64,000 nucleotides of DNA from a virus (Duplodnaviria; Heunggongvirae; Uroviricota; Caudoviricetes). The translations under genes and the position numbers were made by a program. The stretch is from the IMG/VR virus record IMGVR_UViG_2974615235_000001, positions 1,236-65,235 of that record. One strand, given 5' to 3'. Under the pieces are notes generated by a model. The model had not been told where the DNA came from. It searched no databases and saw only the letters and a program-made list of their open reading frames with translations. Below, piece after piece: positions 4,902 to 61,485 of the stretch; position 1 is the stretch's first letter; each line of letters opens with the position of its first letter.

Positions 4902-5342
4902 ATGATAGACATAAACTATAATGATCCAACAAGCGTTGTTCGTAGCAACATTGGTGATCCTAACAAACGTTATGTAAGCGACAACACTATTACATCAGCC
5001 CTTGCTAAGAATGATGGTGACATAGATAAAGCCTCTATCCTTATAATGGAGACTATGTTAACACACTTCTCCATACAAGCTGACGAAAGCAGGACAGATG
5101 ATGTATGGTACAAGTTCACTAAACTTTATGAAAGGTTTAAAAGTCGATTAGACGAGTTTAAGAATAGTAATTCCTCTAAGCATGGTATCCCTATTATTAT
5201 AGGTGGTACACGTATTAGCGAGAAGAATGCTGTAGTACAAGACGTTGATTCTTTCCTCCCACACTTACTGGATGATTGGAGAACTCTTCAAGAACAAGTA
5301 AGACTTGTAGATGAGGCTAAGGCAAGATACGACAATGTTTAG
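4902..5342 (+). CDS. head-tail connector / head completion protein (hypothetical)
   Basis: 146 aa, first of four small ORFs between capsid and sheath, the usual position of neck proteins. Confidence 0.3.
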   Translation: MIDINYNDPTSVVRSNIGDPNKRYVSDNTITSALAKNDGDIDKASILIMETMLTHFSIQADESRTDDVWYKFTKLYERFKSRLDEFKNSNSSKHGIPIIIGGTRISEKNAVVQDVDSFLPHLLDDWRTLQEQVRLVDEAKARYDNV

Positions 5343-5829
5343 TGTAAAGGTGACTCGTAAAACACGTAATCTTGAGAAACTAGTGGATAAGTTAGAAGCT
5401 TTATCCAAGGAACATGTAGAAACAGGCGTATTTGCTGAACAAGGTGAACACCCTAAAACTGAAATGTCTTATGTACAACTCGCAGTAATGCATGAGGAAG
5501 GCGATGGCAATTTCCCCCCTCGTACAGTAAGACCATTGATAATGAATTCTATGAAAGAGAAGCCTTTTATGGATAAAGTATCACAACACCTTAATAAGTA
5601 TTTATTTAAAGATGTTAGTCTTAACTACGCACTAGGTTACATTGGGCAAGATATGGCTATGATAGGTAAATCGTTCTTTGGTGTTATTAATAATCCGTGG
5701 ATGAAAGGTAATGCCCCTAAGACGATAGAACTTAAAGGCAAGAATACACCACTAGTAGATGAAGGTTTCTTTAAAGATACTTGGGCTTATAAAACATCCG
5801 TTAACAACATTGTAGTGGAGAGTGTATGA
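5311..5829 (+). CDS. head-tail adaptor (hypothetical); alternative start ATG 5335 overlapping the upstream stop (ATGTTTAG)
   Basis: 172 aa ORF in neck-gene position; translational coupling. Confidence 0.3.
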   Translation: MRLRQDTTMFSVKVTRKTRNLEKLVDKLEALSKEHVETGVFAEQGEHPKTEMSYVQLAVMHEEGDGNFPPRTVRPLIMNSMKEKPFMDKVSQHLNKYLFKDVSLNYALGYIGQDMAMIGKSFFGVINNPWMKGNAPKTIELKGKNTPLVDEGFFKDTWAYKTSVNNIVVESV

Positions 5830-6194
5830 TTGATTTAATGAGAACACATTCTATACCTCTTTACAGACGGTCTGAGGAAGAAGGGTATCTTAACAATGAA
5901 GGTGAATGGGTTCAGGCACAATTTAAAGACGCTGAAATACTAGAGTGTAATGTACAACCTCTGCGAGATGGTAAGACTAAAGTAATACTTCCTGATGGAG
6001 TGCGTACAGACCATGTTATCGTTATACGGTCTTTCACTAGAATAACTGTAGCGGATATGTTAGACGACACAGAAGGTGATGAGGTAGAGTATCAAGGTAA
6101 AAGGTTTGAGGCTTTTAAAGAGGAAGACTTCTCTGAGTATGGGCTTATGTCAGACCACTACAAATACTTGTTTAAAAGGAAAGACCAACAATGA
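5826..6194 (+). CDS. neck / tail completion protein (hypothetical)
   Basis: 122 aa; ATGA overlap with upstream gene. Confidence 0.3.
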   Translation: MIDLMRTHSIPLYRRSEEEGYLNNEGEWVQAQFKDAEILECNVQPLRDGKTKVILPDGVRTDHVIVIRSFTRITVADMLDDTEGDEVEYQGKRFEAFKEEDFSEYGLMSDHYKYLFKRKDQQ

Positions 6195-54511: not shown

Positions 54512-54970
54512 TTAAAAGTTTTCGTCTTCAACAGGTGTAGCTGCTGGTCTTCCAAATTCTCTACGAATAGATGCACAACGTTTGGAACACGACTTCCCAT
54601 ACCCACGTTTCAGGTCTGCAACACGGGCTTCATATACAAAGCCACAAGCACATTTCATCTTTTGTTTCTTACCGCGAACTGGTTTTTTATTTTGTCTTTT
54701 AGTTTCTGCAATTTCTTTACGTTTTGTTGCTCTTGAATTAAGTTCTTTATCAAGAATGTGAACCCATTCCCCCCATTTATCATCATCACATTCAAACGTA
54801 GATGAACCTGAGTGCATACGCGCCACTCTGAGTGCATTTTTTAAATGTGGCACTGACATTTGAGATACTGGAATGCTGTCGTTCCAGTGAGGTACACTTC
54901 TTGTTAACCCTTCATAAGCGGGGTCATACGTCATCTCGTACCCACCTGCATCTTCTGCGCCTTGTCCCAT
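54512..54970 (-). CDS. early protein with C-terminal basic Cys-rich (zinc-ribbon-like) tail
   Basis: 152 aa; first minus-strand gene downstream of the divergent promoter; CACGFVYE...CSKRCAS. Confidence 0.35.
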   Translation of the reverse strand: MGQGAEDAGGYEMTYDPAYEGLTRSVPHWNDSIPVSQMSVPHLKNALRVARMHSGSSTFECDDDKWGEWVHILDKELNSRATKRKEIAETKRQNKKPVRGKKQKMKCACGFVYEARVADLKRGYGKSCSKRCASIRREFGRPAATPVEDENF

Positions 54971-55043
54971 ATTACCGCCTAAGATTGTTTATTACGGAAG
55001 TCTACACCGCTAGATGGCTTCCATTTTCGATAACTTGTGATAT

Positions 55044-55072
55044 ACTATACACAGACATTAAGATGATGTCAA
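55044..55072 (-). promoter_or_regulatory. sigma70-type promoter for minus-strand early/replication operon (TTGACA-N17-TATAGT)
   Basis: Plus-strand tgtcaa 55067-72 and actata 55044-49 read as a consensus -35 and near-consensus -10 on the minus strand. Confidence 0.45.
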
Positions 55073-55301
55073 CAAGGGAATTCAAATAAAATGAAAATAG
55101 TAAATAATACATCGCATCAGGGAACAATCTTAAAAGATTTCCTTGACACAGAGTACGAATGTAGTTTAGAGTTATTCCACATTATCTTATTCCTGTCGAA
55201 GTTCTATGACTTTGTTATTGATGATGGGAATGTGGTAGTGTGTGATAAAGAGTAAATCTCTTATTAATACAGATACTTAATGTTAATTGTTAAAATAACA
55301 G

Positions 55302-55329
55302 TTGCATTTGAAAATAACTATGTTATAAT
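55302..55329 (+). promoter_or_regulatory. strong sigma70-type promoter (TTGCAT-N16-TGtTATAAT extended -10)
   Basis: ttgcat 55302-07, tataat 55324-29 with TG at 55321-22; about 20 nt upstream of the RBS of the HTH gene. Confidence 0.55.
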
Positions 55330-55349
55330 ATATACACGAGGTAGGAAAA

Positions 55350-55589
55350 ATGAACAACTACTTAGATAAGCTTAAAGAAAGCTTGATAGACCAAATGGTG
55401 AAAGCTATGAAAGAGAATAATATCTCAGCATACAGGGCAGCTAAAGAAAGTAATGTTAACCCTGCATACATGAGCATACTTCTAAACAAAAAATCGAATG
55501 CCACTTTAGACCGAATAATTACAATAGCGGAGGCTATAGGACTTAAAGTAGATGATATTATTTTTAGATTAGAGGTTGACAACAAGTAA
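55350..55589 (+). CDS. XRE/Cro-like helix-turn-helix transcriptional regulator
   Basis: 79 aa; HTH-like segment ISAYRAAKESNVNPAYMSILLN; first gene of the + strand early region; RBS GAGGTAGG. Confidence 0.5.
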   Translation: MNNYLDKLKESLIDQMVKAMKENNISAYRAAKESNVNPAYMSILLNKKSNATLDRIITIAEAIGLKVDDIIFRLEVDNK

Positions 55590-55599
55590 TCTATATGCT

Positions 55600-55715
55600 T
55601 TAATGTAAGAAATACCTATTGTTGTAAGGAAATGTGCGGTTTTACTCTACCCTAAATCGCAATACAAGTAATAAACAAAAGGGTGTAAGAAATACTCCTT
55701 ACAACAATACAATTA
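55600..55715. repeat. direct repeat GTAAGAAATAC (x2) plus inverted repeat tattgttgtaagg / ccttacaacaata
   Basis: 55606-16 and 55686-96 direct copies; 55616-28 versus 55699-711 inverted; in the 450-bp non-coding region after the HTH gene. Confidence 0.5.
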
Positions 55716-55840
55716 TACTTCGTCTTTGACCAGACGCTCCATCATACGTAATACTAGCCAGTGTTAGGCAAAAGTATGAGATAAACAGTGAATAACGGGT
55801 GATATAAAAACTCCTACGATTTTGGTAGGCTCTATCCCAA

Positions 55841-55995
55841 GGTGATAGTTTCCTTCTAAGGATGAAACCTTAGCAAACAACCACTGATAAAGAGTGTAAT
55901 TGTTACTAACAGTCTTGTACTGTAATCGTATGATGTTACCATGATAGTGATAGTTCTAAAGGGACAATCTTTTAAAGGTGTCTCTCCTATCACCC
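55841..55995. repeat. GTGATAGTT motif repeats (two direct including tandem gatagtgatag, one inverted ctatcacc)
   Basis: 55842-50, 55942-55, inverted at 55988-95; operator-like arrangement upstream of the 56042 gene. Confidence 0.4.
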
Positions 55996-56041
55996 TAATG
56001 GTCTTGATACAGATCCGTCTAAAATTTGAGGAGGAGTCATA

Positions 56042-56467
56042 ATGAAAACAATTAAGACAACTGCAAGCGTGTCTATGGGCAGGAACAGTAATAATGAGTT
56101 TTACATACATGTAGAGGATGAACACTCTGGCAATAAAATAGTTTCTCTATCAATGGATGAGAAGGATTTTGCATTTCTTATTACAGGATTGCATGGGGTT
56201 AAGACTGACTGCATTTTACACAACGTCACTAATGTAGGTAAGAAAAGGGTAATTGAACGGGTGTCTATGCCTGAACCTGACGCTTTTGATAAGGGAAGCG
56301 TCAAAATGGCTGTGAGGGAACACTTTGAAAGGGAATATGAGGCTGAAGGTTGGAAACTTTGGGATGATGGTACGAGTAGTCAACAAAATTCGAGGGGACT
56401 TCATAACTTTATTGTAGTTAAATACGTACCTGTAGAAGATGATGTAGTGGTAGAAAAGTATTACTAA
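56042..56467 (+). CDS. hypothetical early protein
   Basis: 141 aa; strong RBS GAGGAGG. Confidence 0.4.
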   Translation: MKTIKTTASVSMGRNSNNEFYIHVEDEHSGNKIVSLSMDEKDFAFLITGLHGVKTDCILHNVTNVGKKRVIERVSMPEPDAFDKGSVKMAVREHFEREYEAEGWKLWDDGTSSQQNSRGLHNFIVVKYVPVEDDVVVEKYY

Positions 56468-56498
56468 TTACTAGACTGTGAAGGATAAGGAGAATATA

Positions 56499-56815: not shown

Positions 56816-56844
56816 TTGACATAACTATTTACTACACATAAACT
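56816..56844 (+). promoter_or_regulatory. sigma70-like promoter TTGACA-N17-TAAACT
   Basis: ttgaca 56816-21; taaact 56839-44; upstream of the 56875 gene. Confidence 0.4.
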
Positions 56845-56874
56845 AAGACGACATTAACAAAGAGGAGAAACATT

Positions 56875-57447
56875 ATGAAAAACGGTAAGTATAGATTGAA
56901 AGATGACAATGGTGTAGAAATCGAAGTAGAGAATTACGTTGCTTCTTTCACAAAGGTAGGGGGTCTCCTATTTTGGCATGTAGGGGAGAAGATTACTGTG
57001 GACCATTTAGATGAAAACTCTTGGGAACGTATCCCTGATGAATCACCTACATTCAAGAAGGGTGATAGGGTAAAAAGAAAAGATGGTACAAACTTTAGTA
57101 ATGGGGGTTATGTAGTCACTGTAGATGATGTTACAGATGAGTCTCGGATATGGCTTAAAGAAACAGCTACAGTTATTGACCACCAATCTTTAGAACTAGT
57201 TCAGATTTCCTCTGAACAACCTACCCCTACCCCACACAAGTATGCTGATGTAATCAAAGCTTGGGCAGATGGGTATGAGGTGCAGAGTTTTAATTGTGGT
57301 AAGTGGAATGACGTAAATTACCCTACATTCAACCCTGATCTAGAATGGCGTATCAAACCAGACAACCCTAACCAAGATAGAATCCTAGAAATAGAAAACA
57401 CTATCACTGAATTACAAAATGAATTAGAAGAGTTGAAACGCTCTTAG
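56875..57447 (+). CDS. hypothetical early protein
   Basis: 190 aa; RBS AGAGGAG. Confidence 0.4.
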   Translation: MKNGKYRLKDDNGVEIEVENYVASFTKVGGLLFWHVGEKITVDHLDENSWERIPDESPTFKKGDRVKRKDGTNFSNGGYVVTVDDVTDESRIWLKETATVIDHQSLELVQISSEQPTPTPHKYADVIKAWADGYEVQSFNCGKWNDVNYPTFNPDLEWRIKPDNPNQDRILEIENTITELQNELEELKRS

Positions 57448-60855: not shown

Positions 60856-61485
60856 GTGATGAGTGATTTAGAAAAGTTGTTTGAACATGCGCCAGAGGGT
60901 GCGGTTGAGTTAAGGGAAACTCTTAATGGTGGTTATTTAAGGTGGTTTAACAAAAATAACGATGCATGGGGAGGTAACGAATGGACCACACCTGACTGTG
61001 GAGAATATAAAACCCTAGCCACACGACCACAGCCACAGCGTAAAACGGTGGAGGATGCGGTTGATGAGCACAAGGGTAAGTGGCCTTTTAGTCTCGGAGT
61101 TATACGCATGGGTTACTCATCAAAACTCGAACATTACTTTGCTTTTGGACATGGCTATGATTTTTGTGAAGGGGAATACCTAGTCTGCACCCGCGAAGAA
61201 TTCGAAGCCTGTGTTGCTGCTAAGAGCGAGCCTGAGTGGACGCATATTTACAACGGGGAAGAGTGCTACATAGCTACAACATATAACGATTGTGCATGGG
61301 TTGTGCGAAGGATGACTGACGACAAGATTGTACTATTGGAAGACCTAAAACCCATCAAGCCTACAATCACAGAAAAAGAACGTGAAACAGTAGCTAAGTT
61401 TGTAGCGCGTATATACACAAAAGAAAGTTACGACTTGCGTAAAGAGTTTGACGACTTTGTTAATGAGCATGAGGTAGGAGAATGA
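60856..61485 (+). CDS. hypothetical protein
   Basis: 209 aa; RBS GAGGAG. Confidence 0.4.
   Translation: MMSDLEKLFEHAPEGAVELRETLNGGYLRWFNKNNDAWGGNEWTTPDCGEYKTLATRPQPQRKTVEDAVDEHKGKWPFSLGVIRMGYSSKLEHYFAFGHGYDFCEGEYLVCTREEFEACVAAKSEPEWTHIYNGEECYIATTYNDCAWVVRRMTDDKIVLLEDLKPIKPTITEKERETVAKFVARIYTKESYDLRKEFDDFVNEHEVGE

Follow-up and report, generated by a model that had tools for sequence, protein, structure and literature searches.

Which role can be assigned to 452 nucleotides (nt) that lie between two rightward genes of a phage and encode no protein? This question is raised by positions 55590-56041 of a 64,000-nt stretch of DNA (the window) from the marine Alteromonas phage vB_AmeM_PT11-V22 (V22; MN877442.1, genus Myoalterovirus; genome of 92,760 bp), where a gap separates ORF83, a gene for a Cro/C1-type helix-turn-helix (HTH) protein, from ORF84. 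Window coordinates equal V22 record coordinates minus 1235, the gap corresponding to record positions 56825-57276; positions in the record are marked as such below. From the repeats of the gap, an original prediction had proposed an operator array for the adjacent regulator, an origin-like region or a structured non-coding RNA. According to our analysis, with a probability of about one half, the gap is the untranslated 5' leader of a rightward early transcript for ORF84 and the following genes, transcribed from a promoter (P2) overlapping the end of the HTH gene and headed by a predicted hairpin (D1).

The gap, its promoter and its repeats

The gap between the HTH gene and ORF84 is real and non-coding, with the flanks and length that had been described and with ORF84 starting at 56042. 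The genes on both of its sides lie on the plus strand, and the strand switch is found just to its left: genes through ORF81 (end 54970) run leftward and those from 55091 on run rightward. The features of the gap and of its edges are given below; promoter P1, the start signals of ORF84 and the collinearity of the bipartite repeat were read directly from the sequence.

55302-55307 and 55321-55329, plus strand: promoter P1 of the HTH gene, TTGCAT, 16-nt spacer, TGtTATAAT.
55350-55589, plus strand: ORF83, the HTH gene, encoding a Cro/C1-type HTH protein of 79 amino acids (aa); Pfam HTH_26 6.8e-06, HTH_3 6.1e-05.
55547-55611, plus strand: conserved block, identical at 64/65 positions between V22 and L025, a locus of a relative introduced below; about -64 to +1 of P2.
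55576-55581 and 55599-55604, plus strand: promoter P2, sigma-70-type with an extended -10; -35 box TTGACA, 17-nt spacer, TG at 55596-55597, -10 box TTTAAT.
55604-55615, plus strand: first copy of the direct repeat TGTAAGAAATAC, overlapping the last base of the P2 -10 hexamer and the initial transcribed bases.
55617-55709, plus strand: predicted hairpin D1 (93 nt), 14-bp perfect stem and 65-nt interior.
55664-55695, plus strand: second copy of the bipartite direct repeat ACAAGTAAT-N11-TGTAAGAAATAC.
55829-55813, minus strand: weak terminator-like site, CCTACCAAAATCGTAGG then AGTTTTTATA.
55856-56125, minus strand: open reading frame (ORF) of 89 aa, antisense into ORF84, no family match.
55938-56002, plus strand: predicted hairpin D3, three-tiered, including GTGATAG/CTATCAC; -20.7 kcal/mol, z = -1.9, not significant.
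56028-56034 and 56042-56044, plus strand: start signals of ORF84, a strong ribosome-binding site (RBS) GAGGAGG and ATG.
56042-56467, plus strand: ORF84, 141 aa, an orphan belonging to a V22-specific cassette.

As had been stated, no convincing ORF is present in the gap. Stops number 7-21 per frame and none of the six translated frames matches a PHROG family; the 89-aa minus-strand ORF belongs to no Pfam or PHROG family, and the small ORFs lack an RBS or a protein family. No transfer RNA (tRNA) or transfer-messenger RNA was called in the gap by ARAGORN, and Rfam 15 gave no match at gathering score in the window and only noise at E up to 10 between 55200 and 56200. The published description of V22 mentions neither a tRNA nor a non-coding RNA (PMC7289586). 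Between 54900 and 56500, no terminator-like site (GC-rich hairpin followed by a T run) is found on the plus strand; the sole such site of this interval is the weak minus-strand one at 55829-55813, and to the right of this site the gap has no promoter-like sequence on the minus strand. A sensitive blastn search ('distant' setting) with the DNA of the gap against 50,697 phage records retrieved V22 itself only, the exact inverted-repeat pattern described below was matched neither in IMG/VR (0 matches) nor in 185,579 genomes (0 matches), and a metagenome scan for homologues of the gap re-found the L025 contig alone.

P2 stands at the 5' edge of the region. Its -35 box falls inside the HTH codons for V-D-N, the last codons of the gene, and transcription is predicted to start near 55610-55612. 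In our own promoter scan P2 scores 11/12 plus TG; the genome has 16 sites scoring at least 11/12, and among the intergenic ones the two farthest from the next gene are P2 (438 nt) and the promoter of a distal RNA module described in the next section (590 nt). Two uncultivated relatives, found through neighbouring genes, give a measure of its conservation. Relative 1 (IMGVR_UViG_3300024581_001100; loci L005, L026, L028 and L030) has a primase-helicase 87% identical to that of V22, and relative 2 (IMGVR_UViG_3300025191_000001; loci L025, L027, L029 and L031) was reached via the 54-aa ORF at 55091-55255. The HTH protein of L025 is 62% identical to ORF83; in the pairwise comparison of the HTH gene outside the 65-nt block, 33-37 of 60 positions are identical per 60-column stretch (55-62%). 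P2 is identical in L025, and the similarity between V22 and L025 stops at its predicted +1. In L005 the HTH protein encoded at the same place has no detectable similarity to ORF83, and the same position inside this unrelated gene carries TTGACA, 17 nt and TGtAATAAT, then GTAAG. The left junction shared by these loci is explained by P2. The conserved TAATGTAAG is thus the -10/start region, and one copy of the direct repeat, the first, belongs to the promoter.

All the repeats listed in the original prediction are present, at positions differing by 1-4 nt. The 12-nt direct repeat TGTAAGAAATAC occurs at 55604-55615 and 55684-55695, and a perfect 14-nt inverted repeat is formed by TATTGTTGTAAGGA (55617-55630) and its complement TCCTTACAACAATA (55696-55709), with 65 nt between the arms. 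Besides, the 9-nt GTGATAGTT is found at 55842-55850 and 55947-55955 with CTATCAC at 55987-55993, a 6-bp hairpin is formed by CTAAGG (55856-55861) and CCTTAG (55868-55873), and a further 9-nt long-range pair links 55740-55748 to 55927-55935. In 300 dinucleotide-preserving shuffles of the 452 nt, the longest chance repeat was typically of 8-9 nt; a 14-nt inverted repeat was reached by none of the shuffles (0/300) and a 12-nt direct repeat by three (3/300). Because chance repeats reach 8-9 nt, the GTGATAGTT pair, the 55740-55748/55927-55935 pair and the CTAAGG hairpin are at chance level, as is CTATCAC, and the rest of the leader (55710-56027) holds repeats at chance level only. The repeats above chance are those of the first cluster only, that is the TGTAAGAAATAC direct repeat and the TATTGTTGTAAGGA/TCCTTACAACAATA inverted repeat. 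The latter is the longest perfect inverted repeat (loop of at most 150 nt) of the whole genome. Elsewhere in the window TGTAAGAAATAC and the 14-mer occur only at chance level, and GGTGATAGTT-like words are not enriched there (5 found, 5.2 expected).

As for the pairing across about 70 nt that had been suggested for the inverted repeat, the hairpin predicted there is stable. In the folding check, the D1 segment (55611-55715) reaches -25.0 kcal/mol with z = -3.9, none of 200 shuffles being as stable. For the gap as a whole the margin over shuffles is slight, with z = -1.9 (plus strand) and z = -2.4 (minus strand). Such z-scores are a poor discriminator here, as illustrated by the covariation-supported RNA of the relatives, which scores z = -0.8. 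The interior of D1 holds an inner 7-bp hairpin (GCGGUUU/AAAUCGC) and the second copy of the direct repeat (55684-55695), which adjoins the 3' arm. This copy is also part of the bipartite repeat, whose first copy (55582-55615, N13) is collinear with P2 from the spacer through +5; part of the promoter-to-start segment seems to have been duplicated in the bipartite repeat, whose second copy has no usable -35 or -10 box.

These elements suggest how the leader would be made and would act. Transcription would enter from two sources, P2 and read-through of the HTH gene from P1; transcripts from P1 should read through since no terminator follows the HTH gene. The resulting leader would extend rightward over about 430 nt ahead of the GAGGAGG site of ORF84. 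The RNA made from P2 would start with about six free bases, followed by the very stable 93-nt hairpin D1, which would most likely act at the RNA level, as a 5'-terminal stabilising stem-loop or as a double-strand processing site; the remaining repeats of the leader would have no separate role. With regard to such activities, D1 can be compared to the stem-loops of the Escherichia coli ompA 5' untranslated region and to the RNase III sites of T7 early genes, being like them long, stable and located near a 5' end or between cistrons. Elements of this kind are typically 20-60 nt long, whereas D1 spans 93 nt with a large interior.

The relatives' module and the exchange of cassettes

In the two relatives, the place of the gap is taken by a different sequence. 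The gap after the HTH gene is of about 650 nt in L025 and about 350 nt in L005, and these two gaps are closely similar: in their alignment, columns are on average 79% identical, and far more so among the first 480; the V22 gap resembles neither. The shared sequence belongs to a module of about 500 nt, five copies of which were collected from three phages. Each relative has two copies and V22 keeps one, the distal copy at about 86.4 kb. The copies, together with two of the traces of the module seen around the V22 gap, are as follows.

Record 86393-86930 of V22 (L024:38393-38930, outside the window): distal module copy.
L031:6133-6620, relative 2: module copy.
L025:4508-5030, relative 2: HTH-proximal module copy.
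L030:1462-960, minus strand, relative 1: module copy.
L005:6800-6380, minus strand, relative 1: HTH-proximal module copy.
55949-55977, plus strand: module trace 2, GATAGTTCTAAAGGGACAATCTTTTAAAG, the sole internal stretch of the gap resembling the relatives' module.
56462-56481, plus strand: right cassette junction and module trace 3, a 20-nt exact match to L025:5024-5043, at the end of the relatives' module.

The module appears to be a candidate new structured RNA, as yet undescribed. For its first ~290 nt, RNAalifold gave 61 pairs, 24 of which still pair through changes on both sides. In an alignment of the core (helices P5, P4, P6 and P7) registered to the structure by hand, in which the five copies represent only three phages, all 122 of 122 cells pair and 18 of the 26 pairs are changed on both sides; when the 3' partner was slid by 1-3 columns as a control, pairing fell to 34-48%. 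Helix P3 is GCAGC/GUUGC in distal and GCACU/GGUGC in proximal copies and would probably form a pseudoknot with P5. Conserved loops are UAGUCAUCGUAUUA, GCGAUAGYCUGU, UAACAAG and UGGAAAC. The core is followed by a long hairpin of ~110-130 nt flanked by the direct repeat AAGAAGATAAT, and the 3' part carries two to four mini-hairpins of the form AAAGA-N3-5-TCTTT. The distal and proximal copy types share no ORF, and no copy matches Rfam 15 or a tRNA. The three distal copies occupy another divergent intergenic region, where each follows immediately on a canonical sigma-70 promoter (TTGACA, TTGCAA or TTGCAT with TATAAT), at the same promoter-to-RNA-start distance as at P2.

The V22 gap is not detectably a member of this family. 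A five-copy profile was run with nhmmer over the whole V22 genome, all filters off and E up to 10; it reported the distal locus (record 86385-86932, E = 1.2e-161) together with an echo, on the reverse strand, of the long hairpin of that locus, one weak match (record 69374-69456), and nothing in the gap. The covariance model R1, which covers the core P5, P4, P6 and P7 (the 5' half, P1-P3, being compared by sequence profile), scored the plus strand of the gap at 2.6 bits or less compared to 83-113 bits for the true copies, and gave only noise across the window (best E = 0.47, outside the gap). The alignment of the gap with the five copies by MAFFT was not meaningful. A by-eye match of 55836-55925 to the P4/P6/P7 part (CAACC...TTGTT, TAACAG) was unsupported by the covariance model and was dropped, and a pattern match in a Treponema metagenome-assembled genome, likewise unconfirmed by that model, was attributed to chance. 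Within the gap, the GTGATAGTT copies 105 nt apart and one unit resembling a mini-hairpin (55949-55977) recall the 3' part of the module; no long hairpin lies between these copies, and 9-nt repeats are at chance level. Neither the pseudoknotted core (P3-P7) nor the conserved loops, the AAGAAGATAAT-flanked hairpin or the run of AAAGA...TCTTT mini-hairpins is recognised in the gap.

What the gap does share with the module copies of L025 and L005 is its placement: it stands behind the same promoter in the divergent early region, on the plus strand and after a Cro-like gene, and its predicted hairpin begins a few bases after the predicted start. Indeed, helix P1 of the relatives' RNAs begins roughly 5-20 nt from the start and D1 at about 6 nt, so that D1 would occupy the spot of P1 in an RNA made from the same promoter position. 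Besides the promoter block, V22 retains three traces of the module. The 22 nt that follow the HTH stop codon are 21/22 identical to L025. The second trace, GATAGTTCTAAAGGGACAATCTTTTAAAG, matches record 86808-86837 of V22 in 25 of 30 columns (local alignment, score 33, reached by 0/300 shuffles), at the junction of the second direct repeat and the first mini-hairpin; the genome has the 14-mer ACAATCTTTTAAAG at two places only, in this trace and at record 86824, the one-base-shorter ACAATCTTTAAAG being found at record 86856 in the distal module. The third is the 20-nt match after ORF84. Because of the left junction at 55611 and this exact right junction at 56462-56481, the segment 55612-56461 (gap and ORF84) behaves as a cassette that would have replaced, or entered, the HTH-proximal copy of the module, leaving within it only the ~30-nt trace at 55949-55977. 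Exchange of cassettes in this early region is also shown by the genes further right, where L025 carries at 5296-6003 (plus strand) a 49-aa ORF and a D12-class N6-adenine DNA methyltransferase in place of ORF84 and ORF85.

The idea of a structured non-coding RNA gains support. In its favor are the conserved promoter, the lack of a predicted terminator, the stable predicted D1 and the presence of a covarying RNA at the same site in the relatives; on the other side, the V22 sequence is not a detectable member of that family. In the comparison with related phages, which had been suggested as a check, the V22 sequence was absent and a covarying module stood at the same site in two relatives.

Some further observations were made on the module. 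HNH genes directly follow two of its copies, at L024:38974-39768 (V22 ORF151) and at L005:5711-6250 on the minus strand; they differ in Pfam family (HNH_3 with NUMOD4 versus HNH PF01844) and look like independent insertions of free-standing homing endonucleases beside a conserved sequence. An HNH-associated RNA of the HEARO type was rejected, as the HNH families differ, the other copies are without HNH gene and the Rfam HEARO model gave no match. In V22, record 69366-70986 (L024:21366-22986), outside the window, is a region of 1.6 kb without annotated genes between convergent gene blocks. Its weak match to the third part of the module (AATCTTTAAAGAT, record 69374-69456) stands beside a GC-rich hairpin with T runs, and record 70753-70766 is a 14-nt exact match to window positions 55622-55635.

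Weighing the alternatives

Several points weigh against the leader reading. The A at position 2 of the -10 hexamer is usually invariant, and TTTAAT of P2, in V22 as in L025, is without it, whereas the L005 equivalent, AATAAT, has it. For this reason P2 was not listed by another promoter scan, which requires this A; the upstream TG may compensate. Without this A, P2 may be weak; alternatively, the conserved block could serve a different purpose, e.g., as a recombination junction. The perfect arms of D1 could stem from a recent duplication or inversion and not from selection, and the folding of the whole region barely beats shuffles. No other genome scanned carries the V22 leader, from which covariation in D1 or the other helices could be read. 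Finally, the repeats around P2 would also suit protein binding. Four TGTAAGRA words are found (55604, 55623, 55684 and, on the minus strand, 55696-55703), and the bipartite repeat ACAAGTAAT-N11/13-TGTAAGAAATAC overlaps P2 (55582-55615) and recurs 82 bp downstream (55664-55695). On this account, ORF83 or another phage or host regulator would bind the words or the bipartite repeat and repress or loop P2. Four words within 106 bp compare with ~0.01 expected (estimated from base composition), TGTAAGaaatactcCTTACA at 55684-55703 is a true palindrome, and one repeat copy overlaps the -10/+1 region of P2 next to a gene for a Cro/C1-type HTH protein. However, the four words are not independent, since they derive from one direct and one inverted repeat; TGTAAG is absent from P1 and from the divergent promoter region (54965-55350); and L025, in spite of an HTH protein 62% identical, keeps only the first copy, i.e., the promoter itself. 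One pair of sites is arranged directly and the other inversely, which also does not suit the operator design of a single dimeric HTH protein. Known Cro/CI arrays (lambda OR1-3, 434, P22) consist of at least three similar palindromes of 14-18 bp between divergent promoters, including the regulator's own. V22 shares with them the adjacent Cro/C1-type gene and short repeated words overlapping a promoter, but its one palindrome and two direct words lie downstream of the gene, the regulator's own promoter being without any such site. The operator array put forward in the original prediction thus received no positive support, and protein binding to these words is regarded as unlikely.

A free-standing RNA was also considered, in which the P2 transcript would be processed to a stable non-coding RNA of unrelated sequence doing the same job as the HTH-proximal copy of the relatives, e.g., cis-acting antitermination or priming. 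The promoter, position and orientation match those of the covariation-supported RNA of two relatives, the ~30-nt stretch at 55949-55977 resembles the third part of the module, and several hairpins are predicted. Against it stand the failure of both the five-copy profile and R1 to find membership, the absence of a terminator that would set a 3' end and the chance level of helices other than D1; as an intact distal copy is retained, the proximal one may have been dispensable. Nothing separates the V22 RNA from a 5' leader, so that the free-standing part of the earlier proposal is left without support and this explanation is a doubtful one. Somewhat more doubtful is a neutral filler of the mosaic genome, which would have arrived with the ORF84 cassette or be a decayed module, with repeats left as the footprint of a duplication or template switch. 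The repeats are indeed perfect and undecayed, the mosaic junctions are sharp on both sides, no search gave a homologue and the relatives differ strongly in this part of the genome. Phage genomes are nevertheless compact, V22 having a coding density of 90% (PMC7289586), and chance is unlikely to have put the longest inverted repeat of the genome exactly where a promoter-driven transcript begins. Far less probable is a replication origin, either promoter-primed (T7/T4 type) or of the iteron type, at the divergent switch. The gap lies ~600 bp from the strand switch and from the cumulative GC-skew minimum near 55000-55100, a T7-like polymerase and the primase-helicase are encoded a few kb away, and a strong promoter stands ahead of it. 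As at the T7 primary origin, T4 oriF/oriG and ColE1 RNA II, such a promoter is followed by hundreds of non-coding bases near replication genes. In contrast to these transcription-primed origins, no AT-rich unwinding stretch, iterons or link to initiation are found: the direct repeat has two copies only, where iterons would be at least three with an AT-rich element, no origin motif was found, and the GC content of the gap (0.35-0.37) is that of its flanks, the AT-rich minimum (GC 0.28-0.31) lying upstream at 55100-55400. The skew switch is itself uninformative because it coincides with the switch in gene orientation. The origin-like region of the original prediction has therefore gained no positive support. 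A missed small gene is the least credible explanation. Candidates are a 31-aa GTG ORF (55634-55729) with AAGGA 3 nt before the GTG, a 33-aa ORF (55941-56042) whose TAA overlaps the ATG of ORF84 (TAATG), and the 89-aa minus-strand ORF. However, no frame matches Pfam or PHROG, the AAGGA is hidden within the D1 stem and its spacing to the GTG is too short, no RBS precedes the 33-aa ORF, and the 89-aa ORF runs antisense into ORF84 with no promoter-like site.

Two further candidates were rejected. GTAAGAAA is like the 3' end of a type I-F repeat of the clustered regularly interspaced short palindromic repeats, but, judged by the sequence alone, no repeat-like hairpin precedes it. An invertible switch flanked by the 14-nt inverted repeats would involve a very small segment (65 bp), and the fact that V22 encodes no recombinase (PMC7289586) was also counted against it.

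Returning to the untranslated leader, its position also invites comparison with lambda nutR (boxA/boxB) and HK022 putR. Like them, the gap would be a cis element of an early promoter located after a small Cro-like gene and before early genes, and the two copies of the relatives' module, one in each early direction, resemble nutL/nutR and putL/putR in placement, which serves as a lead only. The gap differs in having its own promoter and in being several times longer; no boxA/boxB or put-like fold of two hairpins was recognised, no downstream terminator to be overridden is predicted, and no N-like partner was identified.

Neighbouring genes and meaning for V22

The proteins encoded on both sides of the gap are isolated. 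ORF83 matches PHROG repressor and regulator families, and among 5.8 billion proteins only itself was found; the same search with ORF84 gave no homologue but itself, and ORF84 belongs to no Pfam or PHROG family. Scans of IMG/VR with peptide patterns for homologues of the flanking proteins found none. Upstream, the stretch of P1 from the -10 box to the RBS is kept in L025; GenBank ORF82 (30 aa, 55280-55369, plus strand) overlaps P1 as well as the beginning of the HTH gene and has probably been annotated in error. The 54-aa ORF at 55091-55255 (plus strand) is absent from the GenBank annotation and shows 74-85% protein identity in both relatives, with no Pfam or PHROG family. In the leftward direction, V22 and both relatives have a conserved promoter, located in the window at 55044-55072 (minus strand; TTGACA, 17 nt, TATAGT). 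Judged by sequence alone, its transcript would start with a conserved GGAAG...CTTCC hairpin (54995-55040). The presence of such a hairpin behind the leftward promoter as well suggests that early transcripts of this region may commonly carry 5' hairpins. Farther right, ORF96 (60859-61485, plus strand), annotated in GenBank as 'transcription termination-antitermination domain-containing protein', gave no Pfam match at E <0.01, and the basis of this annotation was not reproducible.

As a feature the gap is of a common kind, a promoter with a putative structured leader in a mosaic early region. Taken alone, it adds to the V22 annotation an unannotated promoter and a long structured leader, which is useful and unsurprising. 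More interest attaches to the module of the relatives, of which V22 has a copy at 86.4 kb. It is conceivable, at a low probability, that the gap is a working replacement, unrelated in sequence, for one of the two copies of this undescribed, pseudoknotted module of ~500 nt. If so, leader RNAs would be exchangeable cassettes with a shared cis function (terminator-resistant early transcription or replication priming), and V22 would hold two different solutions in one genome. For the HTH-proximal copy of the module, V22 would be a naturally occurring knock-out or replacement, and this could help to reveal the role of that RNA.

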